Part shown: positions 17,676 through 49,950 of the stretch, piece after piece | How the letters are laid out: every line of letters starts with the position of its first letter | Numbering within the stretch: the stretch's first letter is position 1 | Assembly: GCA_031416315.1 (NCBI GenBank) | Contig: JANOTL010000109.1 | Span: forward strand, 1-64,000 | Source: Pseudomonadota bacterium | Lineage (GTDB): Bacteria; Bdellovibrionota_B; Oligoflexia; Oligoflexales; CAIYRB01 | Direction of reading: 5' to 3' | Length of the DNA: 64,000 bases | Notes under the pieces: model-generated | What the model saw: only the letters and a program-made list of their open reading frames with translations | Told to the model about the DNA's origin: nothing | Database searches by the model: none | Position numbers and translations under genes: made by a program

Positions 17676-21815
<4,140 letters not shown>

Positions 21816-21851
21816 TCGTTTTGCTACTACCTCATACCTGAGGGGACGAAC

Positions 21852-24800: not shown

Positions 24801-26006
24801 GACGACGGCTCGACGAAAGAGAAGTACCCGATCGTGTACGGCTCGACCCTGCGCGTGAAGGAAGGCGACATCCTGTCCGCCGGCGACAAGCTGGCCGAAT
24901 GGGACCCGTTCACGGTGCCGATCATCGCGGAAGTCCCAGGCGCGGTCCGCTTCATCGACTTGCGTGAAGGCGCGACGATGGAAGAGCGCGTCGACGAGAT
25001 CACGTTCCAAACGCAGCGGGTCGTGACCGAAGGTCGTACCGCCGAGCTGAAGCCGCGGATCGAGATCGCGGACCCTCAAGGCGTCACGGCGAAGGTGACC
25101 AGCACGAAGAAAGACGCCGTCTACAACTTGCCGGTCGGCGCCATCATCACCCAGGAAGACACGACCATCGTGCATCCTGGCGACATTTTGGCGAAGATCC
25201 CGCGCGAGCAGACGAAGACGAAGGACATCACCGGGGGCCTGCCGCGGGTCGCCGAGCTCTTCGAAGCTCGTAAGCCCAAAGACCTCGCGGTCATGGCCGA
25301 TCGCGACGGTACGGTTTCCTTCGGCGCCGACACCAAAGGCAAGCGCAAGCTCTTGCTGACGGACGACGCGGGCGAAGCGAAAGAGTACCTGATCCCGAAA
25401 GGCAAGCACGTCGTGGTCACCGAGGGCGACTTCGTTCGTCGCGGTGAGCTCTTGGTCGACGGACAGGTCAACCCGCACGAGATCCTCGAAGTGCTCGGGC
25501 GCGTCGAGCTGGCTCGCTTCCTCGTCGACAACATCCAGGAGGTCTACCGACTCCAGGGCGTCGAGATCAACGACAAGCACATCGAAGTCATCGTGCGTCA
25601 GATGCTGCGCCGCGTGAAGATCGTCGATCCGGGCGATACGAAGTACCTCCCGGCGGAGCAGGTCGACCGGTTCGACCTCGCCATCACCAACGGTCAGATG
25701 AAGGAAGAGGGTAAGCAGGAAGCCACGTTCGAATCGCTGCTCCTTGGCATCACCAAGGCGTCCTTGTCGACCGAAAGCTTCATCTCGGCCGCGTCCTTCC
25801 AGGAAACGACGAAAGTGCTCACGGAAGCCTCGATCAACAGCAAGGTGGACTACCTGCGCGGTCTGAAAGAGAACGTGATCATGGGACGTCTGATCCCGGC
25901 CGGTACCGGAGCCAAGGTCTATCGCGACCTCAAGGCCGAAGTTCCGAGTCGCGTGAAAGCCCCTGCCGCCAAGGCCGAAGTCGCCGAAGCTGCCTCCGCG
26001 ACCTGA
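21852..26006 (+). CDS. rpoC: RNA polymerase beta' subunit
   Basis: TTG start; NADFDGDQM catalytic motif, zinc-binding Cys residues, [13 protein letters not shown]. Confidence 0.99.
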
Positions 26007-26032
26007 TCTGTAGTGTTTTTCGAGTCCATGCG

Positions 26033-26063
26033 AGAGGGCGGTCTTAATGACCGCCCTCTTTAT
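26033..26063 (+). terminator. Hairpin terminator after rpoC
   Basis: 11-bp stem AGAGGGCGGTC/GACCGCCCTCT followed by TTAT. Confidence 0.65.
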
Positions 26064-26265
26064 ACGGGTAAGCCGCGCATGAAATCGTGGAGGCCGAGAA
26101 TTCCGTCGACAACGGTACGGGAGCGTCATTCAGATGTTGCGGCATCTTCAGTCTTTTGGTACGGATACACTCCCTTATCCCGCATAAGGTCTGTTTCTCG
26201 GGCGTGCTGAGCCCGGGTAACTCCATGATTTAGTTGATAATGTTCTCCCTGAGGGACCTCGTTAC

Positions 26266-26679
26266 ATGCCTACGATCATGCAGCTCATCAAAACCGGCCG
26301 TCACGCGGTCAAAGCCAAGAGTAAGTCGCCTGCCCTCGTCAGCTGCCCCATGCGGCGTGGCGTTTGCGTGCGCGTCTACACGACGACCCCGAAGAAGCCG
26401 AACTCGGCCCTTCGTAAAGTCGCCCGCGTGCGCCTCACGAACCAAATCGAAGTGACCAGCTACATCGGTGGCGAAGGTCACAACCTCCAAGAGCACAGCG
26501 TCGTGATGGTGCGCGGCGGCCGGGTCAAAGACCTTCCCGGCGTGCGCTACCACATCATCCGCGGCACGCTCGACACCAGCGGCGTCACCGCTCGTCGTCA
26601 AGCGCGCTCGAAGTACGGCGCCAAGCGCCCGAAAGCCGGCGCGGCTGGCGCTGCCGGTGCGGACAAGAAGAAGAAGTAA
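26266..26679 (+). CDS. rpsL: 30S ribosomal protein S12
   Basis: [31 protein letters not shown]. Confidence 0.99.
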
Positions 26680-26714
26680 TTTCCGAGTTTGCATCTCTAG
26701 GAGAGAGTTGAGAT

Positions 26715-27203
26715 ATGGCACGCCGCCGCGAGATTCCGAAACGCATCATCCTTCCCGACCCCAAGTACAAAGACGTACTCGTCGCGAAGTTCGTGAACTG
26801 CATGATGAAGCACGGCAAGAAGTCGGCCGCCGAGAAAGCCTTCTACGGCGCGATCGACATCATCGAAGCCAAAGGCCCGAACGCTCTGGCCCCGTTCAAG
26901 AACGGCGTCGAGCTCTTCAAAGCCGCGGTCGACAACTCTCGCCCCCTCGTCGAGGTCAAATCTCGCCGGGTCGGTGGCTCGAACTATCAGGTCCCGGTCG
27001 AAGTTCGCCCGGAGCGCCGTCAAGCGCTGGCGATCCGTTGGCTGGTCGAATTCTCGCGCGGCCGTCCGGGTCGCTCGATGGGTGAGCGCCTCGCCGCCGA
27101 GCTGCTCGACGCGGCCAACAAGCGCGGCGGCACGATCAAGCGTCGCGAGGACGTGCACAAGATGGCGGACGCCAACAAGGCGTTTGCGCATTACCGCTGG
27201 TAA
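26715..27203 (+). CDS. rpsG: 30S ribosomal protein S7
   Basis: [30 protein letters not shown]. Confidence 0.99.
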
Positions 27204-27223
27204 TCGGCAAAAGAACGAGGAAA

Positions 27224-27246
27224 GGGCGGGTCGACCGCCCTTTTTT
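27224..27246 (+). terminator. Intrinsic terminator between rpsG and fusA
   Basis: GGGCGG-GTCGA-CCGCCC followed by six T. Confidence 0.75.
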
Positions 27247-27276
27247 CATTTCCAATTATTTTTCTGAGCTGAGACG

Positions 27277-29361
27277 ATGAGCGTCAAGAAAACCGACCTC
27301 GCCCGCTACCGCAACATCGGCATCATGGCGCACATCGACGCCGGGAAGACGACGACCAGCGAGCGGATCCTCTTTTACACCGGCAAGATCTACAAGATCG
27401 GCGAAGTCCACGACGGCTATACGACGATGGACTGGATGATTCAAGAGCAGGAGCGGGGGATCACGATCACCTCCGCCGCCATCACGTGCTTCTGGAAAGA
27501 TCACCGGATCAACATCATCGACACGCCGGGTCACGTCGACTTCACGGTCGAGGTCGAGCGCTCCTTGCGCGTGCTCGACGGCGCCGTCGCGGTCTTCGAC
27601 GGCGTGCACGGGGTCGAGCCGCAGTCCGAGACCGTTTGGCGGCAGGCCAACAAATACAAGGTCGCGCGCGTCGTCTTCATCAACAAGATGGACCGCGTCG
27701 GCGCCGACTTTCCCGCGAGCGTGAGCTCGATCCGCGAGCGTCTGCAGGCGAATCCGATCCCGTTCCAGCTGCCGATCGGCGTCGAGGAGACATTCCGCGG
27801 CGTCGTCGATCTGGTCGCCATGAAGGCGATCGTGTGGGACGGCGACGAAGCCGAGAAGGGCGTGAGCTTCGACACAATCGACATCCCCGAGGCCATGACG
27901 GAAGAAGCCGCCGTCGCGCGCGAGAAGCTGGTCGAGGCGATCGCCGAGACGGACGAAGCGCTGACGGAGAAGTTCCTGGAGGGCAAGCCGATCGCCGAGG
28001 ACGAGCTCTGGGCCGCGGCGCGCCGCGCCACGATCGGCTTCAAGATCGTTCCCGTCTTCTGCGGCTCCGCGTTCAAGAATAAGGGCATTCAGCCGTTGCT
28101 CGACGCCGTCGTCCGCCTTTTGCCGTCGCCTTTGGACGTCCCCGACGCCGAGGGCCTGTCCGCCGACGACAAAGAGCGGCCGATGACGCGCAAGCGTCTG
28201 CCGGAGGAGCCGATGTCGGCGATCGTGTTCAAGATCGTCAGCGACGCCTTCGTCGGCCAGCTTTCCTACGTGCGCCTTTATTCCGGCACGCTCGAGGTCG
28301 GCGATGCCGTCTACAACTCGCGTACGGGCAAGCGCGAGCGCGTCGCGAAAATTCTGATGATGCAGGCGAACCAGCGCGAGGAGGTCAAGACCGCAGCCGC
28401 CGGCGACATCGTCGCGTTGGCGGGGCCGAAGTTGGTCGCGACGGGCGACACGGTCTGCGATCAAAAAGACCCGATTCGCTACGAGTCGGTGCAGTTTCCG
28501 ACGCCGGTCATCTCCATCGCGATCGAGCCGAAGAGCGGCGCCGACAACGACAAGTTGGTAAAGTCGCTCGAGCGCTTGACCGTCGAGGATCCGACCTTCC
28601 AAGTGTCGATCGACTCCGAGACGGGTCAGACCCTGATCCGCGGCATGGGCGAGCTCCACCTCGAGATCATCTGCGACCGTCTGAAGCGCGAGTTCAAGGT
28701 CGACGCCAACGTCGGCGCGCCGCAGGTGTCCTACCGCGAGACGATCTCGGCCAAGGCGTCGGAGACCGAGGAGTTCCACCGCGAGACGGCGGGGCTGACG
28801 CAGTATGCGAAGGTCACGATCGAGGTCGAGCCGGCCGAGCAGAAGGACGGCCTCGTCTTCGTCAACGCGTCGAAGCCGACGCAGATCCCCTTGCCTTTCA
28901 TCAAGGGCGTCCGCACAGGCCTCGAGGAGAGCATGCAGGCGGGCGCGATTGCCGGCTTCGGCGTGCTCGGCGTGAAGGTGACGCTCACGGGCGGCGCGTT
29001 CCAAGAAAACGTCTCCGACGAGATCGCGTTCAAGATCGCGGCCGCGACGGCGCTCCGGACGGCCTTCCGCAAGGCGAGCCCTTTGCTCCTCGAGCCGGTC
29101 ATGGCGATCGAGGTCCTGGCGCCGGAGAACTACCTCTCCAACGTCATCTCCGACCTCAACAGTCGCCATGCCAAGGTGAACAACGTCAGCTTGCGGGGTC
29201 ACCTGCAATCGGTCGACGCGACGGCTCCCTTGGAGGAGATGTTCGGGTACTCGACGCAGCTACGGTCGATCTCGCAGGGGCGGGCGACCTATACGATGCA
29301 GTTCTCGCACTACGAGCCGGTCTCCAAGCAAACCTTGGAGCGGATCACGGGGCGATCGTAA
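27277..29361 (+). CDS. fusA: Elongation factor G, divergent domain IV
   Basis: [40 protein letters not shown]; domain IV loops are non-canonical. Confidence 0.92.
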
Positions 29362-30696: not shown

Positions 30697-31896
30697 ATGT
30701 TTAAACTGAGTTTCCACGTCGGACTCGTCGCGCTCGTCGCGGCGTGCGGTACGACGGAGTTTGCGAGTGGGCCTGCGGGGGGCAAGATGCCGCCGCGGAA
30801 GCCTGGCATTCAAAGCGCGGGCGATGCACGGCCAGCCGACACGCCGCTCCCCGCGGAGGAGCGCGACGAGGCGCCGCCAGCCGCAGCCGAGATCGCGACC
30901 TCACAGATTCCGCCAGGACAGTCAGGTACCGCGACGCAGATGATCTCCCCGCAAGACGCCTCGCTCGAGATTCCCGCCAGTCCCTCCGATCCCGCCGATT
31001 CCACCGCATCCCCACAAGAAGAGCCCGTAGACCCCGAGTTGCCGATGCCGGCGCCGGCGATGCCGCGCACCTGTCCGGAGACGGATCAGCACGTGCTCGT
31101 GCTGGATTTCAAATCGGGTTGGTGGGCCGGCGACGGCGGCACCTTCTTCCAGACTTTGCTGCGCGAGCTCTCCGATCCGTGCATCGCGACGGTCTCTTTC
31201 GAATACCACCACATTGTGAGTGGGTCGAACACCTCGCAGGTGATCCCGGGCGAGACCCAGACCACGGAGATGCCGGTTTTGGGCGACGTCGACTTGACGA
31301 CGCGGCATGCGGATTGGGGCAACTACTCGCAAATCTGGGTGCTGTCGGGCTCGTCGAGCGACAACCTCGACCTGCGCGTCACGGACGCGCTCTTCGCCGG
31401 CCTTGCGGCGAAGATCAAGGCCTCCGGCCTGCCGTTGATGGTCGGCAGTGGCAACGGCAACATCACCCACGCGAACGCGTTGATGACGAAGCTGGGCTCG
31501 GCGTCGCGCTTCGCGACGAGGCTTCCTGAAGGACCAGTGGTCGATGCGACCGGGTCGTTCTCGGTGTTGACGAAGCTCTTCCGCGGTGCGGCGCTCTCGT
31601 CGGAGCACGCCTTGTTTCAACGACTGTCGGCGGTCGATGGCGTGGCCGACACCGTCGAGACGGATCTCACGGCAATGCGGAGTGACTACCTCGTGGTCGC
31701 GCCGGACTTCGTCAACGTCGGCCGCAACACCGCGGCCGACTGGTCGATCGCCGCTTCTGCGCCAGGAGCGGCGCGGCGGATGGTGCTGGAAGCAGGCTTA
31801 CAGCGCTTCTACGCGATACGCGCCGGCTCGAACGAGCCGACGCGCATCTATCTGCAGAACATTCTGATCTTCTTGGGGACGCCCGAGATGCCTTAG
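30697..31896 (+). CDS. Hypothetical lipoprotein with Pro-rich linker
   Basis: GAGGAG RBS; lipobox VAAC; Pro/Ala-rich N-terminal stalk followed by a globular domain (LDFKSGWWAGDGG). Confidence 0.7.
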   Translation: MFKLSFHVGLVALVAACGTTEFASGPAGGKMPPRKPGIQSAGDARPADTPLPAEERDEAPPAAAEIATSQIPPGQSGTATQMISPQDASLEIPASPSDPADSTASPQEEPVDPELPMPAPAMPRTCPETDQHVLVLDFKSGWWAGDGGTFFQTLLRELSDPCIATVSFEYHHIVSGSNTSQVIPGETQTTEMPVLGDVDLTTRHADWGNYSQIWVLSGSSSDNLDLRVTDALFAGLAAKIKASGLPLMVGSGNGNITHANALMTKLGSASRFATRLPEGPVVDATGSFSVLTKLFRGAALSSEHALFQRLSAVDGVADTVETDLTAMRSDYLVVAPDFVNVGRNTAADWSIAASAPGAARRMVLEAGLQRFYAIRAGSNEPTRIYLQNILIFLGTPEMP

Positions 31897-33581
31897 AGAG
31901 TCTCGTTGCTGGCGACGCGGTGTGCACCTTCTTCGTCGCCGAAGAAAACGCTCGCGAAGGAGCTTGTCAGGCGTTGGAGCGCGTTCGAGCGAAGGCGCAC
32001 GCCGACGGGCATGCCGAGCTCGACTCCAGTGAGCACCTTGCTCGGGGAGATCACGACGCGAGCGTAGTTCTGAAGGTCTTGCGGGCGATCGGGGAGGCCC
32101 AGGCGCTTTTGGCTCTTGGGCACCCGGTTGATCTCGACGACCCGGCCGGAGAGCGGCGTGCGATTCGACGGGAGCATGATCTCCGACACGGCGCCGATCG
32201 TAATGCGGTCGGCGTCGTCCTGCGAGATGAGGGCGTCGACCGTGAGCTCGTGCGACTCCCGCGGACGAAGGCGTAGGACGAGGTCGCCCTTCTTCGCTTG
32301 CTCGCCGACGGCGGAGTGGACGCTTTCGACGACGCAGTCGCAGGGGCTCCTGACTTGCAGGTCCTCGCGGCGGAGGTTCAGGGCCTTCGAGCGCGCTTCG
32401 CGGACGGCGACGTCGGCGCGCGCCATCGCCACGCTCTGTTCGAGCTTGAGGCGGTTGGCGACGTCGGTCTTCGCCATGCCGGTGTCGAAGCCCTCGCCGA
32501 GGAGGCGGCTCCGCGCCTCGGCCTCGGCGAGCTCGCGCTCGGCCGTCTCGGCTTTCGTCTGCGCGGCGAGACGCAGGGACTCGTCGGCGTCGAGCTCGGC
32601 GAGCGCCACGACTTTCTCGGCGAAGAGCTGCTTCGTCTTCGCGAAGCGCTGGTCGGCCATCTCCGCCTCGCGGCGCGCGCGCTTGGCGGCGTTGCGCGCG
32701 AGCTTAACGTTGGAAACGCCGCTCTTGATCGACTCGGTCTCGACGACGCCGGCGATCTGTGCTTCGCGCTCAAGGTACTTCAGGCGCACGCGATCACGGT
32801 CGAGCTCGGCCGCGGCGACCTCGAGGTCTCCACGCAGCTCGTTGTCGGTCATCTCGAAGACGACGTCGCCTTTCGCCGCCGCGGCGCCGACTTTGAGCTT
32901 CGGCAACTCGCGGCCGTCGAGGGCGCCGTCGACCGGTGCCTTGACGTCGAGGGTCGGCGCGGAGACGGCGGCGAGCTTCGTCTCGAGGATCGTGATGCGG
33001 TCGTAGGCCAGGACGCCGGCCAAGGCGAGGATCAACGCTCCGGCGGCGATCGAGGCCGTAAGCGACATGATGCGGCGCGTTTTGCCGAAGCGCGGCAGGG
33101 GCTTTTGCCCGGCGGCCGCGATCTTCCTCTGGGCGCTGGTGCCGCCACCTTCAGCCAGGACGCCGTCGACGGAGATGAGGCGGCCCGACAGGTGGCTCTC
33201 GATCAGATAACGCAAGGTCTCCGACTGCGAGCGCGTCAGCTCCAGGAAGCGCAGGCCAGCGCGGCCGCTATCGGGGGACCGCCAGACTGGGATGACGGGG
33301 AGCGCGAGCTTGAGCTCGAAGCCGTGGCACGGCAGCGAGATCTCGACCACCGAGGTGCCGAGCGTCGCGCCCGCGGCGACGCCCCGGATGCCGATGCCCC
33401 CGATCGACACGTCGCGCAGCTCGAACGGCGCGCCGTTGAGCGTGACGAGCGAGTTCAGCTCGACGCGCATATGGTGCCGATCGCTCGGCCCGTCGCGCTC
33501 GATGCGCGCCGGGACGTCGCTCGTCCCCGCCTGGATGCCGCTGCCGCTTTGTGCGGCCTCCGATCCGTCCTGTAGATTCAT
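31893..33581 (-). CDS. alg44: Alg44-like c-di-GMP-binding co-polymerase (PilZ + TM + membrane-fusion domain)
   Basis: PilZ motifs RHHMR and DVSIGG; LSGRLISVDGVL; one TM; coiled coil; SPCDC barrel-sandwich; ATGA overlap with alg8. Confidence 0.8.
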   Translation of the reverse strand: MNLQDGSEAAQSGSGIQAGTSDVPARIERDGPSDRHHMRVELNSLVTLNGAPFELRDVSIGGIGIRGVAAGATLGTSVVEISLPCHGFELKLALPVIPVWRSPDSGRAGLRFLELTRSQSETLRYLIESHLSGRLISVDGVLAEGGGTSAQRKIAAAGQKPLPRFGKTRRIMSLTASIAAGALILALAGVLAYDRITILETKLAAVSAPTLDVKAPVDGALDGRELPKLKVGAAAAKGDVVFEMTDNELRGDLEVAAAELDRDRVRLKYLEREAQIAGVVETESIKSGVSNVKLARNAAKRARREAEMADQRFAKTKQLFAEKVVALAELDADESLRLAAQTKAETAERELAEAEARSRLLGEGFDTGMAKTDVANRLKLEQSVAMARADVAVREARSKALNLRREDLQVRSPCDCVVESVHSAVGEQAKKGDLVLRLRPRESHELTVDALISQDDADRITIGAVSEIMLPSNRTPLSGRVVEINRVPKSQKRLGLPDRPQDLQNYARVVISPSKVLTGVELGMPVGVRLRSNALQRLTSSFASVFFGDEEGAHRVASNETL

Positions 33582-35248
33582 GGAGCCCCATCCCCCCCAA
33601 TTGACCCGACGATCGGGCGAAAAGCGCTCGCGGTCGGCGACGGCAGGGCCTTGCTGGCGATGGCCATCAAGGTCAAGAACGTCGCGCCCGCGAGCGCCGT
33701 GAAATACCTGGTCCAGAAAAGTTGCTTGAGCGAGGCGCGCGCGCTCGAGAGTCCTTGCCGCGTCCAGCTTTGCTGATCGATGCGGAAACTCATGTGAATC
33801 TTCAGCAAAGCGCCGTAGAGCTGCGTGTAATAGAGCAAAAACGGGAAATGCGGGCTGACACGTCCGCGCAGGGCGCCGAGCGCCACGCCTTGGAAGAAAC
33901 GGCTGCAGAGGACCCATACGGCGTAAGCGACGAGATAAGCAGGATTGCGCGTCACGGCGCTCAGCAGGGCGAAGCTCGGGCCGCACAGCGCGGTCCACAT
34001 CGAGATCCGCTGGTCCAAGAGGCAGAACCAGGTGAAGAGGCCCGCACGACGCGGTCCGAGGGCGACGGCGCGGCCGTTGCTCCTCAGCATGTTGCCGAAC
34101 CAGCGGACCATGAGGCGCGTCGTGCCCTCGACGAAACGCGGCGTCGGCAACTTCTCGAAACAGCCGGTGGCGAGATCCGGCAGATAGAGCATCCGGTAGC
34201 CGTGGGAGAGCGTCCAGTACCAGGTTGATTTGTCGTCGCCGGTGAGGAACCTGAAATTGCCGTGGCGCCAGTGGTCGACCGCGTCGTTCTGCAGGCGGTC
34301 GATGAAGCTCGGGTCGGTCGCGACGGAGGCTCGGAACATGGAGAAACGCCCGGTCAGCACGAGGAGGCGGCGCGACAACGACAGTGAGGACATGGTCATG
34401 TGGCGATGCGCAAGGCGCAGATCGTACCACTCCTTGACCCAGTCGTTGCCTTCCACGATGGCGTAGTTGTCGGTCGTGAGCGCGCCCAGGTCGGGCATCG
34501 TGCGGAAGAAGCCGACGGCTTTGTGGAAGGTCCCGCGCTTCACATAGGTGTCGCCGTCCATCAGGAGGACGACGTCGTCGGGGCGTGGACGGCGGCGCAC
34601 GATCGCGCGCAATGCTTCGGCCATCGCGTCGCGCTTGCCCGTTCCGGCCTGCCGCATGAGGACCAGGCTGACGCGGCTACGGTCGGCGAGGCGCGCGTGC
34701 AGGGAGGTGATGTAGCGCATCTCGGCGGTATCGGTGACCGCGGCGACGATGGTGACGGGAGCGCCGTAAGCGGAGGCCTCGCGGAAAAGTGCCTCGTACA
34801 CTTTGTGAGTGACTTGCGCCTCCATTCTGTAGCTGGTCACGAGCGCGAACACGCGCGGAAGCGTGCGCGTCGCGAGAGCTTCTTCTACGGCGGCGTCGGC
34901 GGCATGGCGGTGGCGCGGGAACGAGACGAAGCGGTACGCGAGATAACGCGTGAAATGCACGAGCGCCCAGGCATAGCGCCACGTGCCGATCACGCCGAGC
35001 GTGAAGAAGACCTCTTCGTGACCGGGCGCGATCAGAGAGCGCGGCAGGAAGCCGTAGAGCGCCAAGAGCGCGGCGATCCACAGCGCGAAGCCCAAACGCC
35101 GCGAAAGCGGCGAGGCGAGCGTCGGAACGGAGATCGGGTCGGCCTCGGCGGCGACCGGCTCGTCGTCACGGCGCCGGCCGCGAACAACCGAGCGCGCTTC
35201 GCGTTTGGCGACGCTCGTCTCTTCGGTTCGCGCTCGTGCCGAGAACAT
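33578..35248 (-). CDS. alg8: Alg8-like GT2 mannuronan synthase
   Basis: IGTWRY, VTSYR, GTGKRDAMA, DGDT, LTTD, VLTGR, FLTGDDKSTW, RWFGNMLR, LDQRISMWT. Start is approximate. Confidence 0.85.
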   Translation of the reverse strand: MFSARARTEETSVAKREARSVVRGRRRDDEPVAAEADPISVPTLASPLSRRLGFALWIAALLALYGFLPRSLIAPGHEEVFFTLGVIGTWRYAWALVHFTRYLAYRFVSFPRHRHAADAAVEEALATRTLPRVFALVTSYRMEAQVTHKVYEALFREASAYGAPVTIVAAVTDTAEMRYITSLHARLADRSRVSLVLMRQAGTGKRDAMAEALRAIVRRRPRPDDVVLLMDGDTYVKRGTFHKAVGFFRTMPDLGALTTDNYAIVEGNDWVKEWYDLRLAHRHMTMSSLSLSRRLLVLTGRFSMFRASVATDPSFIDRLQNDAVDHWRHGNFRFLTGDDKSTWYWTLSHGYRMLYLPDLATGCFEKLPTPRFVEGTTRLMVRWFGNMLRSNGRAVALGPRRAGLFTWFCLLDQRISMWTALCGPSFALLSAVTRNPAYLVAYAVWVLCSRFFQGVALGALRGRVSPHFPFLLYYTQLYGALLKIHMSFRIDQQSWTRQGLSSARASLKQLFWTRYFTALAGATFLTLMAIASKALPSPTASAFRPIVGSIGGDGAP

Positions 35249-35447
35249 CGACTCACCAGGCCCGGCCTCAGAGAGGTCGCACAAAGGGTTTTGCGAGGCG
35301 CAAAGAACTGACGAGCTTTTAGCAGCTCGGGCCATTTGCCGCAAGCGGCGGAGACCGCAAGCCCTTCCCGGCCAAAGCTGCGCATGAGAAGGGTTTGCGG
35401 GCTTTTGACCTTCGCCGATCGGAAGAAAATCGGCTATAAGGGCGACC

Positions 35448-36737
35448 GTGAAAACTTTGCGCCATCTTCACTTTGCGAGCGCGCTCGCGATCCTCTCCGT
35501 GGGGGCCTGCAGCCTACCCGAGTCGAAAGTCCGTTGTACGCCGCCGGGACCCGCGCTGAGCCAGGGCGCCTTGGCCTTGGAGGGCGCCGTAGGGATCCCG
35601 CTGGTGACGCTCGACGGCAAGGGTCTCGAGCGGGCGCGAACCCGCCAATTCACCTGCCCAAAGAGCTGGGGTGGCGAGGCCAAGCAGCTGAAGTACTCGT
35701 CGAGGCGCTTCCTGACGCTGCCGATTCGGACGGTCGTCGACAAGGGCGCGGTGCCGCCGAGCGGCGACAAACACGACTTCTTCAGCATCGGGCGGTACTT
35801 CTGGCCCAATGCTCAGACGGCCGACGGGCTGCCTTGGGTGCGTCGCGACGGCGACGTCAATCCGACCGGGTTCAGCGAGCTTTACGACAAGCAGGCTTCC
35901 GACGACATGTTTTCGGCCGTTGCCATCTTGGGGCAAGGCTATTTTTTCCACGGCGAAGAAGCGATGGTGGCGCGCGCCGCCGAGTACGTGACGAAGTGGT
36001 TCGTCGATCCCGCGACGCGGATGCATCCGAACTTGAATTTCGCCGAGGGAGTTCCCGGCAAGGCCTTCGGTCGCGCTCAGGGCATCATGGCGTTCTCGAA
36101 GATGGTGGACCTCCTGGACGCCTTGGCGCTGGTGCAGGACTCGCCGTCGTGGACGCCCGAGGTCGCCTCTGGGCTGCGCGCCTGGATCTCCGAGTTTTAT
36201 GTTTGGCTCGGCACGCATCCGAACGCGCTGCGCGAGGGCGAGGCGAGGAACAACCACGGCACCTATTTCGACGCCCAGCAGGCGGCGCTCGCGCTCTATC
36301 TCGGGAAGCAGGACGAGGCGCGCGCCATTGTCGAGGCCGCGAAGGAGCGGCGCATTGCGACGCCGATCGAGCCGACGGGATTGCAGCCTTTCGAGGTCGA
36401 GCGCGCCAACAGCTGGTTCTACTCGACGTTCAACCTGCGGGGTCTGATGGATCTCGCCGCGATCGGCGAGCGGGTCGGCGTCGACCTCTGGCGCTACGAG
36501 ACGGCGGACGGGCGCGGGATCCGAAAGGCGCTCGACCTCCTCGTCGCGGTTGTCCAGGGTACGGAGCCTTGGCCGTACGCAGGCGAGGTCGAGGAGGGGA
36601 GGATCTACGAGCTCCTGCTTCGGGCCTCGAAGGCCTACGGCGAGCCGCGCTACGCGCAGATCGCCGAGGCGCTTCCAGCCGTGGACGAGTCGGAGGAAAG
36701 GTCTCGTCGGATCCTCCGCCTTCTCTGGGCTTACTGA
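35448..36737 (+). CDS. Alginate lyase family lipoprotein
   Basis: Lipobox VGAC; PPSGDKHDF, YFWPN, WFVDPATRMHPNL, NNHGTY motifs. Confidence 0.82.
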   Translation: MKTLRHLHFASALAILSVGACSLPESKVRCTPPGPALSQGALALEGAVGIPLVTLDGKGLERARTRQFTCPKSWGGEAKQLKYSSRRFLTLPIRTVVDKGAVPPSGDKHDFFSIGRYFWPNAQTADGLPWVRRDGDVNPTGFSELYDKQASDDMFSAVAILGQGYFFHGEEAMVARAAEYVTKWFVDPATRMHPNLNFAEGVPGKAFGRAQGIMAFSKMVDLLDALALVQDSPSWTPEVASGLRAWISEFYVWLGTHPNALREGEARNNHGTYFDAQQAALALYLGKQDEARAIVEAAKERRIATPIEPTGLQPFEVERANSWFYSTFNLRGLMDLAAIGERVGVDLWRYETADGRGIRKALDLLVAVVQGTEPWPYAGEVEEGRIYELLLRASKAYGEPRYAQIAEALPAVDESEERSRRILRLLWAY

Positions 36738-36743
36738 TCGGCA

Positions 36744-38207
36744 CTAGCGACAGTCGCTGCCGTTCAAGACGTTCTGGAGCGTGGCGTCGTAGCACAAGTC
36801 GGTACCTGAAGTGCCGCCGGCGGTGCCGCACTTCCATTCGCTCGACGAGACGGGGCCGAAGTAGGGCGCCAAGGGCTTTCCGTCCTTGAAGACGACGCAG
36901 TATGTGCGCGCGGCGTCCCAGGCGCATCGACAGCGGCCTCGCTTGACGGAGCCTGGGGCGGAGCCACCGGAGACGGCGACGCTCGGGGTGCTGACCGGCG
37001 CGCGGCCGTTGTCGCGGACGGCGCGTTTGCAGGCTTGCTCGAAACCGTTGACGTTGTTGTCCTTGTAGTCGTCGAAGAAGACGCGGAGCGGCAGGCGGCT
37101 CTTGCCGCAGGTGCAGTTCATGCCGCCGTCGGCGTGCGCGTCGTCGCTGGCGCGGCCTTCGCCGTTGAGGCAGGCGCGACGGAAGGCGGTCTTGACGTCC
37201 TCGGATTTCATGTCGACCGGCTTCTCGCGCACGAGACGGCGGCATTCGTCGCTGCCTTTGTCGTAGAAAATCGCCTCCGTCCATGAGACGGAGCTGCCGC
37301 AAGTGCAGCTGACGGCGCTCGCGGTGCCCTTTTGCACCATGCCACCGGCGTTGCGGCAGTCGGTCTCGAAGCTCGAGCGCGGTCGGCCGCCGGAGGTCGG
37401 CGCGCGCAAACCTTCGAAGGCTGCGCCCGTGCGGAAGTCGCGGCACTCCTTGCCGCCCCGAAAGGCGACGGTGAGATAGTCCTCGTCACGCTTGAAGCAA
37501 TCTTTCATGACGGTGGCGGCGCAGGACGCGATCTTGCGCTGGCTGTCGAGACGCACGCAGGCGCCTTGTCTCGCATCGAGGAGGTCTCTGTAGTCGTCGT
37601 CGATTTGGAAGTCGTCGCAGGTGCCGAAACGGTAGAAAAAGGCGCCATTTTGCGGTGAATAGGCGCGGCAGCCGGCGCGCGTGCGGCCGGCGTTGCACGA
37701 GGTGATGTCGCGGTCGCCGCGGATGTAGACGCAGATGCCGTTCTCGTCCGCGTCGCCGCGGCGCCGCGTGAGCTCCTTTTCCATCGCGGTGTAACGCTCT
37801 TGGAGGCGGAGAATGTCGGCGCGGAGCGCGTCGAGCTCGCGCTGCTTGCGCTCCGTCTCGGTGTCGGCGGTGAGGCCTAAGCCCTCGGGTGCGGCGTTGT
37901 TGACGGGGACGTTGGTCGCGACCTTCGGCTTTGCGGCCGGCGCATCGCCCTCGACCGGAGCGTTGAGGGCGTCGAGGCGCTGGTCGATACGGCCGAGGTC
38001 GCCTTCGAGCGAGCGCTCTTCGGCCCGCAGCGTGGCGTCGTCGCAGCCCTGGAGGTCTCCGTCCTTTGGAACGGTGAGGTTGTCGTCGGAGCTTTGCGGG
38101 CGGACGTTGCAAAATGCGGACGAGGTCCCGTCGTTCTTCAGCGTCGCGGCAGTGGGACCCTTACACGCCAAGGTGGCAAGACAGAGCGCGGTCAGCGTCG
38201 CTCGCAT
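36744..38207 (-). CDS. Cys-rich secreted lipoprotein with coiled coils
   Basis: GGAGGAA RBS then MRATLTALCLATLAC; many Cys; paired repeats ending CTCG. Confidence 0.7.
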   Translation of the reverse strand: MRATLTALCLATLACKGPTAATLKNDGTSSAFCNVRPQSSDDNLTVPKDGDLQGCDDATLRAEERSLEGDLGRIDQRLDALNAPVEGDAPAAKPKVATNVPVNNAAPEGLGLTADTETERKQRELDALRADILRLQERYTAMEKELTRRRGDADENGICVYIRGDRDITSCNAGRTRAGCRAYSPQNGAFFYRFGTCDDFQIDDDYRDLLDARQGACVRLDSQRKIASCAATVMKDCFKRDEDYLTVAFRGGKECRDFRTGAAFEGLRAPTSGGRPRSSFETDCRNAGGMVQKGTASAVSCTCGSSVSWTEAIFYDKGSDECRRLVREKPVDMKSEDVKTAFRRACLNGEGRASDDAHADGGMNCTCGKSRLPLRVFFDDYKDNNVNGFEQACKRAVRDNGRAPVSTPSVAVSGGSAPGSVKRGRCRCAWDAARTYCVVFKDGKPLAPYFGPVSSSEWKCGTAGGTSGTDLCYDATLQNVLNGSDCR

Positions 38208-38397
38208 CGACGGTTCCTCCTGAAGATCGTTCCGTATTTCGTCTTTTCGGCGCATCGGCTCAAAACTTGAGCCGGACCTATCCGCGGCAAGCGAGAGGTA
38301 TGGCGCCGAATCTAGACGATAAATCGGCGAATCGCGGGTGGCGAGGAGACGGAGGACGCGACGCACCCACGTTGTTGTGGGTCGAGGGCAGGCAAGG

Positions 38398-39585
38398 CTA
38401 CTTGATCTCTATTTTCTGCGGGTCGAGGACGAGGTTGCCGGGACCGTCGGGCGGCGCCCAGCCGGATTTCGCCTCGGTCCGACGGATCTTGTTCCAAGTG
38501 TGGCCGCGACGCGGGAGGATCGTGGCGCCCTCGACGCGGTTGCGCTGGGTGAAGCCGCCGTGGAAATTGACGTCGCAGTCGGAGTCGAGACCGCTGAACA
38601 AGTTGTCGTGGCTTGACCATTGAATGGCGAGGTGACGCAACCCGCGCAGGCGCAGATCGCGGAAGACGCCGTAGTACGTCCGGGCGACGCGGAAGTAGCC
38701 GTTGCCCTCCTTGCCCTTGTTCCAGGCGCCATCAGCGCGGATCTTCTCGACGCGTGGCGACAAGACGCCGTCGAGATGGACGGCGTGGCGGCCGGCGTCC
38801 AGGATCTCCAGATCCTCGAGGCGCGGCGCGAGAGCGCCGTGGACGAAGATACCGTCGACGACGGCTTCGGGCTTGGCGTTCTCGTAGCGCGTCGGGTCGG
38901 GATGCGCGCCGAGATCGTAGTGCAGGGTCATGCCCTTGATCACGACGTCGCGGAGAACGGGTGCAGCCATGATCTCGGCGCGTGCAGGGAAGGCGATGCC
39001 CAAGGGCAGGTCGAGAGTGAGAGCCGGGCCGGCGACGGAGCGCACGTGAGCGAGCGTCTGGCGCACGTACGGATAGCGCTTGCGCCAAGCCTTGGCGCCG
39101 ATGGCGTCGAGGAACGCGGCATCGTTCGGGGCGCGGACGAGGACGACGTCGCCGGCGGCAAAGGGGGCGAGCTTGGTCTTCTCCGGCGCGAGTGTGATGG
39201 TCGTGGCCGTCTCGTCGACGGCGGCGGCGAGATGGCGTTTCGCGACATGCGTCATGGTCGCGAACGTCGGACCCTCGACGCGGAGGATGGCTTCGGGACG
39301 CGCTTCCGTGCCCTTGAATCTGGCGCGAAGGATGGTCTTACCCGGACCTTTGCCAGAGACCGTGAGGCGGTCGACGGCGAGGCGGAGCGGCGCGTCGAGC
39401 TCGTAGGTGCGGGCCTCGAGCTCGATGGTGTCGCCGGGCTTGGCGGCGGCGACAAGAGCGCTGAGGGTGGGGGCGGGCGAGGCTGGCGGCGCCTTCGTGT
39501 CGACCGGCGGCGCGACCGCGGGGGCGGCCGCGAGAAGGAGCGCGCGGCAGATTTTGCCCGGCCGGCAGTCGGCAAATGTGGCCAT
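38398..39585 (-). CDS. Pectin-lyase-like right-handed beta-helix protein
   Basis: AAAKPGDTIELEARTYEL, LTVSGKGPGKTIL, GAWNKGKEGNGY and beta-helix-like repeats. Confidence 0.7.
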   Translation of the reverse strand: MATFADCRPGKICRALLLAAAPAVAPPVDTKAPPASPAPTLSALVAAAKPGDTIELEARTYELDAPLRLAVDRLTVSGKGPGKTILRARFKGTEARPEAILRVEGPTFATMTHVAKRHLAAAVDETATTITLAPEKTKLAPFAAGDVVLVRAPNDAAFLDAIGAKAWRKRYPYVRQTLAHVRSVAGPALTLDLPLGIAFPARAEIMAAPVLRDVVIKGMTLHYDLGAHPDPTRYENAKPEAVVDGIFVHGALAPRLEDLEILDAGRHAVHLDGVLSPRVEKIRADGAWNKGKEGNGYFRVARTYYGVFRDLRLRGLRHLAIQWSSHDNLFSGLDSDCDVNFHGGFTQRNRVEGATILPRRGHTWNKIRRTEAKSGWAPPDGPGNLVLDPQKIEIK

Positions 39586-39640
39586 CACGATGCGCCCTCC
39601 CCGCTGGCACCATATAATGGGGAAAGACAGAGGAGGAAGG

Positions 39641-40240
39641 ATGTTTTTCGCACGCCTCGGGCTCATGACGCTCGTATCGCTGCCGCTCGGCTGCGCGACG
39701 GCGATTCCGGCGCGCGATCTCGCCGAGGCCGTCGCCGGCAACACGTTCACGCGGCAAGGTGAATACCTGCTGAGCGCGAACGACCAGGTGAGCGTGAAGG
39801 TTTACGGCCAAGACAGCTTGAGCGGCCTCTACACGATCTCGCCGTCCGGCGTCTTGACCTTCCCCTTGATCGGCTTCGTGCAGGCGGCGGGGTCGACGTC
39901 GTTGCAGCTGACGGAGCGGCTCGGACGGGCGCTGCAGAGCTACGTGAAGAATCCGATCGTCACCGTCTCGGTCGCGAGCCAGGGGAGCTTGTCCGTGTAT
40001 TTTTCGGGCGAGTTCAATCGTCCCGGGGTCGCGAGCTTGCCGGGACGCACGTCGATGGTGCAAGGCGTCGCGCTCGGGGGCGGGCTTTCGAAGTACGCTT
40101 CGGGGAGGATCGTGCTCATTCGCCAGGGCGCGAACGGCACGACGCAACGTTATGCGAGCACGTACGACCGCCTGCTTTCAGGGCGCGGAGAGCTCGATCG
40201 GCTGACGCTCGAGCGGGGAGACGTCGTCCACGCCGAGTGA
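39641..40240 (+). CDS. Polysaccharide export lipoprotein (Wza/OPX-like, Poly_export + SLBB)
   Basis: AGGAGG RBS; lipobox PLGC; YLLSANDQVSV, GVLTFPLIG, YVKNPIVTV, LERGDVV. Confidence 0.85.
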   Translation: MFFARLGLMTLVSLPLGCATAIPARDLAEAVAGNTFTRQGEYLLSANDQVSVKVYGQDSLSGLYTISPSGVLTFPLIGFVQAAGSTSLQLTERLGRALQSYVKNPIVTVSVASQGSLSVYFSGEFNRPGVASLPGRTSMVQGVALGGGLSKYASGRIVLIRQGANGTTQRYASTYDRLLSGRGELDRLTLERGDVVHAE

Positions 40241-42633: not shown

Positions 42634-44265
42634 ATGCGCGTTTCACGGGTGTTAATCGGCGTTTGTCTCGCGCTCGGCGGCTTCTCGGGCTGCGGTCCCC
42701 AGACCGACTACAAGGAAAAGTCGGCCACGGTGAAGGCGACGAGCAAGATCACCGCGACGGGCGGCAAGCTCCTATCCAACAACGGATCCGAGGTGGTCGT
42801 GCCCGCGGGGGCGCTCGCGGTCGGCGCCGAGCTGAGCTTCGGCGAGACGACGCCGCCGGCCGAATTCGCCAAGATTACGGCCGCGGCGGCCTCGCTGCCG
42901 GTCGAAGTCGGCGCGATCGGCGCGGACGGCCAACCGGTGCTCCAGGCGCAGCAGGCGCTGACGGTCAGCATCTCCCTCGACGGCACGTCCTTGGCGCTAC
43001 TCGCCGACAAGACCGAAGCCAATCTTTGCGTCGTGATGCGCGCGCGCAACGCGTCGCTTTTCGTCTGGCGCAAAGCGGAGCTCGCGCACGACGCGGCGCA
43101 GCGCAAGGTCTCCGTCTCGACGCTATACCTCGGCATCTTCCAGGTCTTTTACTGCGGCCAGGACGCGATGCCCGGCTTCGTGGACTCGAAGGAGCAGAGC
43201 GCGGCGGCACAGGTTTCCGGCGGCACCTCGGCTTCGGTTGAAATGACGGTTCCTGGCGCTTGGGCGCCGACGCGAAACGTCGCCAAGCACTGTCTCTCGA
43301 TCGTAGACAACGTCGCGACCGCGGACGGCGACGAACTGAGCGTGCTCGGCATCGCCGAAGCCGAGGCGACGGGCGCCGCAGCCGTGCTGCTCGCCAAAGG
43401 CTTGAAACCGCGTCCAGGCGCCAAAGAAGTCTTCGCCTTGCTCCATCTGCAAGCGGCCGGCGTTCCCTGTGCGCTCGGGCTCGGCGCCAAGCTCGGCGAG
43501 TTCGAGGAATTCGTCGGCGCCGTCGGCACCTTCGCCTGGCAGCTCGACATGGGCGTCCTTGCCGCGGGCGGAACGATCTCCGGCACGATCGGCAGCGCCG
43601 GTCCCTTCCCGACCGCGACGATCGACATCGGCGTGGGCGCGCCGGGATTCGAGGGCGAGGCCGCGTTGCAGAACGTCACCGAGCCGATTGTCTGCGTCGA
43701 CCTCGACGTCGAAGGCGGCGCCAAAACGATGCTGCCCGTGAACCTCTCTTTCGCCAGCGGCGTCGGCCGCGTCGGCCCCGAGGCGCTCTACCGTCCGACC
43801 GTGGCAGTTCCGGCGAGCGGCCTCGTCCTCGCGCACACGCTGACCTTGCGCGTCGGCGCCAACTGCCAGCGCTTCGAGATCGGCGCTCAGAACGCGACCA
43901 CCGGCAAGCCTTACGAGACGCGCTTCCGCGGCGCCGCGTTGCTGCCGTCGTATCACTTCGCGCCGGTCGCGATGCGGATCGTCAGCTCGAACCCGCTCGT
44001 CGCCTCCATGAACGGCTGCATCAATGTCTCGCCGTCCGGCGCGACCGACGATCAATCTTGGGGCGAGATCTCGGTCGCGCTCGCCGGCGGCGCGTACCCC
44101 ATCCTGCTGCCTTTTTCGCCGGCGAATACGAGCTACGATCTCCGGGTCGACGTCCTAGCGCAGGGTAAGACCTGTCGCGACGGCAGCGCCGGCAAGTCCG
44201 CGTTTCCGAGCGTGCCGGTCGCGAACCGGCCGCTCACCGCGGAAATCCTCGTCGAGCTCAAGTAA
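42634..44265 (+). CDS. Hypothetical lipoprotein with ZU5-like N-terminal domain
   Basis: Lipobox FSGC; GGKLL...VVVPAGAL motif. Confidence 0.6.
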   Translation: MRVSRVLIGVCLALGGFSGCGPQTDYKEKSATVKATSKITATGGKLLSNNGSEVVVPAGALAVGAELSFGETTPPAEFAKITAAAASLPVEVGAIGADGQPVLQAQQALTVSISLDGTSLALLADKTEANLCVVMRARNASLFVWRKAELAHDAAQRKVSVSTLYLGIFQVFYCGQDAMPGFVDSKEQSAAAQVSGGTSASVEMTVPGAWAPTRNVAKHCLSIVDNVATADGDELSVLGIAEAEATGAAAVLLAKGLKPRPGAKEVFALLHLQAAGVPCALGLGAKLGEFEEFVGAVGTFAWQLDMGVLAAGGTISGTIGSAGPFPTATIDIGVGAPGFEGEAALQNVTEPIVCVDLDVEGGAKTMLPVNLSFASGVGRVGPEALYRPTVAVPASGLVLAHTLTLRVGANCQRFEIGAQNATTGKPYETRFRGAALLPSYHFAPVAMRIVSSNPLVASMNGCINVSPSGATDDQSWGEISVALAGGAYPILLPFSPANTSYDLRVDVLAQGKTCRDGSAGKSAFPSVPVANRPLTAEILVELK

Positions 44266-45241
44266 GCTTTTTTTCCCACTCGTAAGCGTGCTTCGCGATC
44301 ACCTCGAGGTCTGCGAAGCGCGGCTTCCAGCCCAGGACTCGGCCGATTTTCGAGCAGTCGGCGAGGATCGAGGCGACGTCGCCCGGCCTTCGCGGGCCGC
44401 TCGTGACTTGGAGCTTCCGCCCCGTGGCGCGCTCGATCGCAGCGAGCACTTCCTTCACGCTCGCGCCTTTGCCGTAGCCGCAGTTGAAGGCGTCGCTTTC
44501 GCCACCCGCGCGAAGATACGCGAGGGCCGCGAGGTGGGCGTCGGCCAAATCCTCGACGTGCACGTAGTCTCTGATGCAGGTGCCGTCGCGCGTCGCATAG
44601 TCCTCGCCGTAGACGGTGACGCCCGCGCGTTTCCCGGCGGCCGCCTCGGCGGCGATCTTGTAGAGGTGGACCGCCACCTTCGAGCGCTGCCCGAGGCTCA
44701 AGCCCGGCTCGGCGCCGGCGACGTTGAAATAGCGCAGGACCACGTACTTCAGGCCCGTCTGCGCGGCGAAATCCATGAGGATGCGCTCGCTCATCACCTT
44801 CGACCAGCCGTAGGGGCTCGCGGGATTGGGGCGGTCGCTCTCGAGGACCGCGCGATCGCCGCAGTCACCGTACGTGGCGCAGGTCGAGGAGAAGACGAGG
44901 CGCCCGACCTTGGCGGCTTTCACCGCCTCCATCACCGAGAGCATCCCCGTGGTGTTGACGCGGTAGTATTTCCCGGGATCGCGAACCGACTCGGGGACGC
45001 TGAGCACGCCGGCGAAATGAGCGACCGCCGAGATCGCGTGCTTTTTCATGATCTCGGTGAGCGCACCGGTGTCGTTGACGTCCAGCTGATAGAAGGGCGC
45101 CTCGGAGACGAGGTTCTCGCGGAAGCCGGTGGTGAGGTCGTCGACGACCACGACACGGCCGCCGCGCGCGGTCAGAAGACGTGCGAAGTGGGAGCCGATG
45201 TAGCCGGCTCCGCCCGTCACCAATACTGCTTGCTCCGTCAA
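44258..45241 (-). CDS. galE: UDP-glucose 4-epimerase
   Basis: TGGAGYIGSH, YGWSK, LRYFNVAGA, DGTCIRDYVHV. Confidence 0.93.
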   Translation of the reverse strand: MTEQAVLVTGGAGYIGSHFARLLTARGGRVVVVDDLTTGFRENLVSEAPFYQLDVNDTGALTEIMKKHAISAVAHFAGVLSVPESVRDPGKYYRVNTTGMLSVMEAVKAAKVGRLVFSSTCATYGDCGDRAVLESDRPNPASPYGWSKVMSERILMDFAAQTGLKYVVLRYFNVAGAEPGLSLGQRSKVAVHLYKIAAEAAAGKRAGVTVYGEDYATRDGTCIRDYVHVEDLADAHLAALAYLRAGGESDAFNCGYGKGASVKEVLAAIERATGRKLQVTSGPRRPGDVASILADCSKIGRVLGWKPRFADLEVIAKHAYEWEKKLT

Positions 45242-47550: not shown

Positions 47551-48029
47551 GCTCGATCGACCTCGTCGTCAACGGGGAGAAGCGCCGCGTCGAGGCACGG
47601 CCGATGGAGCGCCTTCTCGATGTCCTGCGCGAGGAGCTGCGCCTCACCGGCACGAAGGAAGGCTGTGGCGAAGGAGAATGCGGCGCTTGCAGCGTCCTGC
47701 TCGACGGCCGCCTCGTGAACAGCTGCTTGATCCCGGTCTTGCAAGCCGAGGGCGCCGACGTGCGCACGATCGAGGGCGTCGAGAAGACGCCGACCGGCAA
47801 AGCCTTGCAAGACGCGTTTCTGGCCTGCGGCGGCGCGCAATGCGGGATCTGCACGCCGGGCATGGTTCTGGCGGCCGTCTACCTCCTGGACAAGAACCCG
47901 CGGCCGACAGGCGAAGAGATTCGCGACGGCCTTGCGGGCAACATCTGCCGTTGCACCGGCTACACCAAGATCTTCGACTCCGTCGCAGCCGCGGCGAAGG
48001 CGCTCCACGACGAAGGAAGCACCCGGTGA
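47547..48029 (+). CDS. 2x[2Fe-2S] small subunit
   Basis: GCGEGECGAC, QCGICTPG, GNICRCTGY. Confidence 0.95.
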   Translation: MSSIDLVVNGEKRRVEARPMERLLDVLREELRLTGTKEGCGEGECGACSVLLDGRLVNSCLIPVLQAEGADVRTIEGVEKTPTGKALQDAFLACGGAQCGICTPGMVLAAVYLLDKNPRPTGEEIRDGLAGNICRCTGYTKIFDSVAAAAKALHDEGSTR

Positions 48030-49677: not shown

Positions 49678-49806
49678 AACGACGCAGAGGCGGTCGCGTC
49701 ACTAAGTTGTGCCAAGGTCTCATTTTGTGACCGTGCCCGACGCGCGTCGCGGCAAGGCGCAGCCGTCTTGTTGAGGACTTGCGCGTGCGCCGCGCCTTGC
49801 CAACAG

Positions 49807-49823
49807 CTGGCATCGTCCTTGCT
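49807..49823 (+). promoter_or_regulatory. Candidate sigma-54 (-24/-12) promoter
   Basis: CTGGCATCGTCCTTGCT: GG-N10-GC with TGGCA and TTGCT context, in a non-coding gap. Confidence 0.6.
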
Positions 49824-49950
49824 CATGGAGCCTTATCCCGCCCTTGGATGGCGGCTTTTCGGCTTCGGACGCCCGGCTTTTCGCGATACCCGGCCGATCC
49901 GTTGAAGGGCGCCTCGTGCGCCCTTTGCCGTTCTGGGGCAAACTGCGCCG

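Follow-up and report, generated by a model that had tools for sequence, protein, structure and literature searches.

The window analyzed here, a stretch of 64,000 nucleotides, covers the initial 64 kb of contig C109 (JANOTL010000109.1) of the genome GCA_031416315.1 (hereafter G000; 6.36 Mb, 93% complete), which is assigned to a Pseudomonadota bacterium. At positions 31893–40240, it carries six genes for an Alg44-like co-polymerase, an Alg8-like glycosyltransferase of family GT2, a polysaccharide lyase (PL), a Cys-rich lipoprotein, a β-helix protein, and a short outer membrane polysaccharide export (OPX) lipoprotein (Table 1). The cluster probably encodes a variant of an alginate-type synthase with another sugar donor and another exit, and a hybrid between the synthase and the OPX protein is unlikely.

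These genes are not one operon, because they lie in four transcription directions and the gene of the Cys-rich lipoprotein stands in between. The alg8-like stop and the alg44-like start overlap by 4 nt, and the lyase gene is divergent from the alg8-like gene, the start codon of which is the choice of the gene caller (the open frame extends to 35344). A preliminary description of this DNA had named coupled alg8- and alg44-like genes, a lyase, a β-helix protein, a short OPX protein, and galE, all of which were recovered by Pfam and NCBIfam searches and a fold model; as it also stated, no algD, algK, algE, algX, algJ, or algF is recognizable in the window. The overall GC content and the GC content at third codon positions of the cluster genes agree with those of the flanking genes.

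Table 1. Positions of the cluster genes and of galE in the window
Feature	Position	Strand	Basis
Alg44-like co-polymerase, 562 aa	31893–33581	–	PilZ (PF07238), HlyD_3, one transmembrane helix
Alg8-family GT2 synthase, 556 aa	33578–35248	–	PF13641, E 2e-31
PL38-type polysaccharide lyase, predicted lipoprotein	35448–36737	+	PF05426, E 3e-71
Cys-rich predicted lipoprotein, 487 aa, 26 Cys	36744–38207	–	no family match
Right-handed β-helix protein, 395 aa	38398–39585	–	structure model and fold searches
Short D1-D2 OPX lipoprotein, 199 aa	39641–40240	+	Poly_export and SLBB
galE	44258–45220	–	TIGR01179 above cut-off

Synthase pair, its relatives, and the β-helix protein

The Alg8-like protein shares 39–40% identity with two canonical Alg8 proteins (E 1e-119 to 1e-124). 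The canonical reference consisted of two fetched operons of the algD-8-44-K-E-G-X-L-I-J-F-A type, which were obtained separately, as a protein-homology search for canonical Alg8 had returned Geminicoccaceae-like proteins. The motifs DGD, GDDK, E365, and LMVRW are intact and the equivalent of E322 is kept in the alignment, that is to say, the protein is an Alg8-family GT2 with the DxD, acceptor-site Asp, and RW motifs. The Alg44-like protein has a PilZ domain, a transmembrane helix, and a membrane-fusion protein (MFP) domain, with weak matches to HlyD/EmrA adaptors in the NCBIfam search, and its PilZ motifs (R35-x3-R39 and D57-x-S-x-G-G) are intact, as previously described. PDB sequence searches with the two proteins returned nothing at E 0.1. 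By homology, the synthase is very probably gated by cyclic di-GMP (c-di-GMP) through the PilZ domain, and G000 has four GGDEF genes. A head-to-head pair of ugd and an FHA-GGDEF gene (G000 C174:14027–16391; also L081 and L217–L227) was considered as a link specific to the synthase and rejected, as the pair occurs throughout the family (11 of 12 loci).

Searches at the phylum and class levels each covered 131 genomes, and the family set comprised 12 genomes. This equal size, taken with a DUF4423 gene in the window, points to Oligoflexia as the probable class. The alg8 gene was present in 2 of the class genomes and in 2 of the family genomes; a second genome of the same genus (G001, 82% complete) and locus L001 were counted together as one line of evidence. 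This genus likely gained the Alg8/Alg44 module by horizontal transfer, with the insertion falling beside a resident OPX gene. Outside Pseudomonadaceae, the pair is common: a genome scan found 361 relatives, and the best 80 loci were kept for counts, which are not independent since these loci belong mostly to Halomonadaceae and Microvirga. Genes in the loci were called with a simple caller, and L052 and L060 (2 of 80) were badly called and gave no Alg8 row. Atypical alginate operons without algKE in environmental bacteria were already noted in a passage of 10.1101/769745, and Halomonas alg8/alg44 are mentioned as mannuronan synthases in part of PMC11890756. The proposal that an organism outside Pseudomonadaceae has a split and minimal polyuronan synthase of the Alg8/Alg44 family under c-di-GMP control is supported, the gating by homology.

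A dehydrogenase was called in 71 of the 80 loci, and two types of loci could be told apart. The 44 Ugd-type loci have PL14 in 43 cases and AlgA in none; the 27 AlgD-type loci have AlgA in 25 cases, a TPR-AlgG fusion in 22, and PL14 in none. Operons of the form ugd-alg8-alg44-PL14-PL5-Sel1 without AlgD or AlgA stand at L004–L046 and similar loci (Halomonadaceae, Caenispirillum, Thalassobaculum, and Pelagibius). AlgD-type operons stand at L047–L079 and L102–L104 (Microvirga, Asticcacaulis, Rhizobium, and Loktanella), with a TPR-AlgG fusion of 1,200 aa or a separate β-helix; they have no AlgE-like gene inside the loci, and their outer-membrane exit is also unexplained.

A careful Alg8 tree was built from 34 chosen rows, including the two canonical Alg8 proteins. 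It revealed (i) a branch that unites the AlgD-linked Alg8 proteins with the canonical pair and excludes the window synthase (support 100/99); (ii) a branch of Alg8 linked to Ugd and Sel1 (100/99); and (iii) a branch of TolC-linked Alg8 (100/100). The approximately unbiased test rejected a grouping of the window synthase with canonical Alg8 (p 2e-105). Judged from these results, the window synthase is an Alg8 homologue outside the alginate (AlgD-linked) clade. Ugd- and TolC-linked Alg8 share a state that differs from AlgD-linked Alg8 at 11 columns, and at 8 of these the window synthase has the shared state. The assignment of the GT2 to the Alg8 family therefore stood in the phylogeny, whereas its placement with canonical Alg8 did not. 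A position on the side of the Ugd clade, seen in the first fast tree, was dropped after the TolC clade was added and the careful tree was built.

The β-helix protein, which matches no Pfam family, was modeled as a right-handed β-helix with an insert (predicted local distance difference test score of 90). Its nearest folds are phage capsule lyases and depolymerases (Z 25–29), followed by mannuronan epimerases (Z 23–24). An Alg8-like domain occurs in 27 of the best 150 β-helix homologues (some of them fragments), and conversely a β-helix domain occurs on 13 of 119 Alg8 homologues; in genome G670, a stand-alone β-helix gene ends an alg8-alg44-lyase-Sel1 run. The β-helix protein belongs to the synthase system, because it is fused to Alg8 in relatives, lies within the operon in G670, and occurs in the same genomes as alg8 (2 of the 131 phylum genomes). 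The co-occurrence of this gene with alg8-alg44 in other genomes, which the preliminary description had proposed to examine, was thus confirmed. The protein is a predicted polymer-modifying or polymer-cleaving enzyme, the fold being compatible with a lyase, an epimerase, or a binding role. In addition, distant β-helix homologues are fused to RTX and CBM2 domains (L024:6277–9462, L028, L064:6807–8264, L238, and L239) and in Caenispirillum lie next to two genes for type I secretion; they resemble the epimerases that Azotobacter secretes, but their motifs differ.

The Cys-rich lipoprotein has no match in Pfam, NCBIfam, or Atlas. It has a paralogue on contig C203 of G000, was seen in L001 only among the 80 alg8 loci, and is probably a passenger.

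The Alg44 hairpin and the outer-membrane exit

Two canonical AlgK and AlgE queries found nothing in G000 by tblastn at E 1e-3, and PF13372 had no match in G000 or G001, which supports the earlier proposal that export proceeds by a route other than AlgK/AlgE. A survey with the β-helix protein found 129 metagenome relatives, and 80 loci were examined. An Alg8 domain is present at 33 of these loci, Alg44 at 27, and a helical TolC-fold protein at 34; the TolC-fold gene stands at 24 of the 33 Alg8-domain loci and at 17 of the 27 Alg44 loci. The model of this protein matches TolC (E 5e-11), and 7 of its 28 members match the OEP family. A three-gene module of alg44, an alg8::β-helix fusion, and a TolC-fold gene recurs in organisms of low and medium GC content (L111, L117, L122, L124, L127–L129, L132, L136, and L138–L144), and in L127, L136, L141, and L144 it adjoins cellulose synthase genes.

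In the Alg44-like protein, a hairpin spanning 198 residues separates one half of the lipoyl-like domain from the other, compared with 62 residues in canonical Alg44 (n = 2). This span follows the export genes, with 37 residues at AlgD-type loci (n = 26), 121 at loci with Ugd and Sel1 (n = 43), 154 at TolC-linked loci (n = 17), and 194–198 in the window's group. The window protein therefore has the full α-helical hairpin of an adaptor of tripartite exporters. The Sinorhizobium meliloti synthase BgsA, which works with the HlyD-like BgsB, needs TolC according to a passage of PMC13438883, and by analogy the Alg44 hairpin probably docks tip-to-tip on a shared TolC encoded elsewhere in the genome.

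Alternatively, the polymer might leave through an unrecognized β-barrel porin, which would fit either of the donors discussed below. All characterized alginate, cellulose, and poly-N-acetylglucosamine synthases use barrels, as stated in part of PMC9601211, and in L001 a Porin_O_P-like gene (E 4e-7) follows alg44 in the same direction. However, this porin was not found in G000, nor was an AlgK-type TPR scaffold, and the hairpin is longest at loci without TPR/Sel1 proteins, so that we regard a porin exit as unlikely.

Sugar donor, lyase, and probable product

G000 has two nucleotide-sugar dehydrogenases above the Pfam cut-off, a Ugd-like enzyme on contig C174 and a WecC/TviB-like enzyme on C108. 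The C174 enzyme matches the UDP-glucose dehydrogenase 2Y0E with E 2e-132, compared with 1e-54 for the AlgD structure 1MFZ; it had been considered as a candidate AlgD on the strength of 553 bits against a mixed, mostly Ugd-type profile, and was rejected by its Ugd-like matches. In G000 and G001, the best matches of canonical AlgD are Ugd- or WecC-like and reach only 28–36% identity, compared with 48–74% for true AlgD elsewhere. The genome-wide search for GDP-mannose dehydrogenase, AlgK, and AlgE that the preliminary description had called for thus found none in this 93% complete genome. No tblastn match was obtained in G000 with canonical AlgG, AlgX/J/F, or PL5 AlgL, and AlgI-like MBOAT proteins are encoded elsewhere in the assembly. 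The only two dehydrogenases at the TolC-linked metagenome loci are both of the Ugd type. By exclusion and by this genomic company, UDP-glucuronic acid (UDP-GlcA), produced by the unlinked Ugd on C174, is the donor that we favor, with some reserve. The product would then likely be a β-1,4-glucuronan-type chain rather than alginate, a name that is weakened by the failure to find AlgD and by the position of the GT2 outside the AlgD-linked clade.

The best PDB matches of the lyase are 3NFV (E 1.5e-67) and 8BDQ (E 8e-51), and no AlgL match was found. We take 8BDQ to be BoPL38, which fits the residue numbers published for that enzyme. Residues H270, R319, and Y325 of the lyase align with H243, R292, and Y298 of BoPL38 with the same spacing, and His, Arg, and Tyr were named as catalytic or substrate-distorting in that enzyme (10.1101/2024.12.11.627697). 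By this homology and these residues, the lyase belongs to PL38; the divergent lyase lipoprotein of the preliminary description is thus confirmed, but as a PL38-type enzyme and not as AlgL. It is present in the same 2 of the 12 family genomes as alg8. According to a passage of PMC11890756, PL38 and PL14 each hold both alginate and glucuronan lyases. A second, shorter lipoprotein of the Alginate_lyase family (G000 C201:46918–47841; L106:2919–3842) is unlinked to the cluster.

True alginate or polymannuronate would be the product if algD is unassembled or if the Ugd-like enzyme also oxidizes GDP-mannose, with the β-helix protein acting as a new mannuronan epimerase. The identity to canonical Alg8 and the complete set of catalytic motifs agree with alginate, and so do the incompleteness of the G000 and G001 assemblies (93% and 82%), a GDP-mannose pyrophosphorylase-like (ManC-like) gene on C223 of G000, the best PL38 matches of the lyase, which are alginate lyases, the mannuronan epimerases among the fold matches of the β-helix protein, and distant β-helix homologues near AlgD-type clusters (L064; G293 contig C16). 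Against these stand the place of the synthase outside the AlgD clade, the failure to find an AlgD-like gene not only in G000 and G001 but also in G062, G063, G064, and G670, and the β-helix sequence, which does not contain the DPH motif (motif from PMC4436075). Alginate is therefore an improbable product.

The donor could also be UDP-galacturonic acid, with a GalE-like epimerase forming it, or a UDP-N-acetylhexosaminuronate supplied by the C108 dehydrogenase, and the chain another uronan. This branch of synthases has no linked dehydrogenase; G000 has the WecC/TviB-like enzyme, galE lies nearby, and the β-helix protein also resembles polygalacturonases and capsule lyases. However, the C108 dehydrogenase lies within its own O-antigen-like cluster, the synteny of galE predates the synthase, and all 46 non-AlgD dehydrogenases beside Alg8-family genes are of the Ugd type, which makes such a uronan even less probable than alginate.

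The OPX lipoprotein and the overall reading

The OPX protein is a lipoprotein composed of Poly_export and SLBB domains only. It ends with the SLBB domain and has neither the C-terminal outer-membrane helix nor the D3 domain of the Wza type (class 1); its architecture is that of the EpsY type (class 3, D1-D2), and the label "Wza-like" given to it earlier was misleading, as it has no pore helix. It is the sole Poly_export protein in G000. Across the family, OPX is present in 11 of 12 genomes, a Wzy-like gene is present in the same 11, G007 and G008 have two copies of each, and in 8 genomes OPX lies directly behind the Wzy-like gene. This co-distribution and adjacency place the protein, on genomic evidence, with a Wzy/polysaccharide co-polymerase (PCP) pathway, as for EpsY. 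In G000, contig C160 retains a Wzy-like and a PCP-like gene, and C140 carries a Wzc gene; the Wzy-like protein matches Wzy_C only weakly (E 8e-4), and no Pfam family matches the PCP-like one. The PCP-like/Wzy-like pair (C160:22872–26535) adjoins large polyketide-synthase-like genes, and the Wzc gene (C140:15331–19809) has an SLBB-only neighbor without Poly_export.

OPX was absent from 83 alg8 loci and 80 β-helix loci of other lineages, and it adjoins the synthase cluster only in two genomes of this genus; its co-occurrence with alg8/alg44, which the preliminary description had put forward as a check, was found at none of these other loci. Since it tracks the Wzy-like gene, has no outer-membrane helix, and is absent from the other alg8 and β-helix loci, the OPX protein is not supported as the export route, and it most likely serves the separate Wzy pathway of the family. 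A D1-D2 OPX cannot span the outer membrane and depends on a barrel together with a co-polymerase, as described in parts of PMC9601211 and PMC9603273. No BBP2 or AlgE-type barrel was found in G000; a barrel-like gene beside the OPX gene of G002 has no match in G000, and such barrels diverge fast. In G062, an OPX gene lies ~29 kb from the alg8 fusion, yet it is accompanied there by a barrel and a Wzc of its own. A predicted complex of the periplasmic part of Alg44 with OPX scored 0.00, which weighs neither way. According to PMC9603273, no crossover of OPX with synthase pathways was known.

That the short OPX was co-opted as a periplasmic export part, binding the long hairpin of Alg44 in the way that OPX proteins dock on a co-polymerase, is very unlikely. 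In favor of it, the OPX and β-helix genes of the window stand head-to-head with 55 bases between them and have a similar arrangement in G001, OPX in this genus no longer lies behind its Wzy-like gene, and D1-D2 OPX proteins were proposed in part of PMC9601211 to pair with extra-long periplasmic helices. Against it, OPX is more widespread in the family than alg8 (11 against 2 of 12 genomes) and is missing from the same genome as the Wzy-like gene and doubled in the same two; G000 retains the Wzy-like, PCP-like, and Wzc genes and has a single Poly_export protein; and OPX is absent from the 163 alg8 and β-helix loci elsewhere and would need a barrel, of which no AlgE or BBP2 type was found. The OPX gene beside the cluster is therefore no evidence for an OPX/synthase hybrid, and this false lead is closed.

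The galE gene was considered as part of the synthase system and rejected, because the OPX-galE neighborhood, also present in G003 without alg8, predates the synthase. Elsewhere in the window lie an ordinary rpoBC/rpsLG/fusA cluster (12688–29361), a molybdoenzyme cluster of the xanthine-dehydrogenase type that includes XdhC and MobA-like genes (45334–50580), and a TrpF fused to a second domain (55648–56979), which is a separate gene in G003.

Taken together, the reading that we prefer, with a probability of roughly 40%, is a c-di-GMP-gated polymerase of UDP-GlcA (a glucuronan synthase) with TolC-type export and a separate OPX. The gene content, motifs, folds, and distributions were observed, and from them we infer the gating, the donor, the modification, and the exit as follows. 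c-di-GMP from one of the four GGDEF proteins would bind Alg44's PilZ domain and activate the GT2, which would polymerize UDP-GlcA and thread the chain into the periplasm; there the β-helix protein may modify or trim it, the Alg44 hairpins would conduct it to a shared TolC-type channel, and the PL38 lipoprotein may clear stray polymer, as AlgL does.

Beyond the incomplete assemblies, the ManC-like gene, and the lyase matches mentioned for alginate, several observations weigh against the glucuronan reading. G061, which has a fused Alg8, has an AlgD-like gene in a separate Wzx-type cluster ~100 kb from alg8, and Ugd is a housekeeping enzyme found in 12 of 12 family genomes, so that its presence is little informative. 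Among the 120 listed homologues of a Ugd-type Alg8 and 14 plasmid matches, no Peteryoungia or Sinorhizobium name appears, so that a connection to an organism known to produce glucuronan is still missing. The careful tree does not settle the placement of the window's three-row branch, which joins neither the Ugd+Sel1 clade nor the TolC clade, and in a direct test of columns that separate AlgD- from Ugd-linked Alg8, the window synthase has 10 AlgD states, 7 Ugd states, and 9 others. With regard to the exit, searches of G000 and G001 did not find the sister clade's TolC-like family (the alignment search, of five genomes, had no positive control), no locus with a hairpin of 194–198 residues had a TolC-fold gene alongside, and eight places of the TolC family that were read in G000 all lie beside efflux-type genes.

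The genes for bacterial β-1,4-glucuronan were stated to be unknown in a 2023 paper (passage of PMC10180729). A literature search, with most subscription papers outside its coverage, returned no report of Ugd-linked or TolC-linked Alg8 or of a TolC/β-helix architecture. If UDP-GlcA is the donor for Alg8 proteins outside the AlgD clade, "mannuronan synthase" is a wrong annotation for hundreds of genes and the question of the glucuronan genes becomes testable; a TolC exit, if true, would be a second export route for the alginate-synthase family and would explain the membrane-fusion fold of Alg44. A broader proposal, which we hold to be doubtful, is that the Alg8/Alg44 family extends far beyond alginate, that an older branch of it is the long-sought bacterial glucuronan synthase, gated by c-di-GMP, with its own β-helix modifier (possibly a C5-epimerase converting glucuronic to iduronic acid) and TolC secretion, and that the alginate branch gained AlgD, AlgK, and AlgE later; the window would then hold a split, minimal form of this synthase.

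Compared with the alginate system of Pseudomonas and Azotobacter, the window has a homologous Alg8 with the same motifs, the PilZ-transmembrane-MFP arrangement of Alg44, coupled genes, and a periplasmic lyase. It differs in that (i) AlgD, AlgK, AlgE, AlgG, AlgX, AlgJ, and AlgF were not found in its genome; (ii) its Alg44 hairpin is ~3 times longer; (iii) its lyase is PL38 and not the PL5 AlgL; and (iv) its β-helix protein is of another family and its synthase lies outside the AlgD clade. The window OPX has the same D1-D2 lipoprotein form as EpsY of the EpsY/EpsX OPX/β-barrel translocon described in parts of PMC9601211 and PMC9603273 and tracks Wzy/PCP-like genes, but it has no adjacent barrel gene and stands beside a synthase with which it is not co-inherited. 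In Halomonadaceae and several Alphaproteobacteria, the uncharacterized Ugd-linked operons of the alg8-alg44-PL14-PL5-Sel1 type differ from the window by their linked ugd, PL14, PL5, and Sel1 and by a shorter hairpin; they share a non-AlgD Alg8, an extended hairpin, a PL38 lyase nearby in 4 loci, and the β-helix within the operon in G670. In the BgsA-BgsB-TolC system for the mixed-linkage glucan of Sinorhizobium meliloti, with which we group the cyanobacterial cellulose synthase/HlyD/TolC system cited in the same passage of PMC13438883, the TolC requirement is documented, whereas the window system has its c-di-GMP site on the PilZ domain of the adaptor, an Alg8-type GT2, a predicted acidic product, and a TolC use that would follow by analogy. 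Both consist of two genes for a c-di-GMP-controlled GT2 and an HlyD-like protein, with TolC outside the operon.

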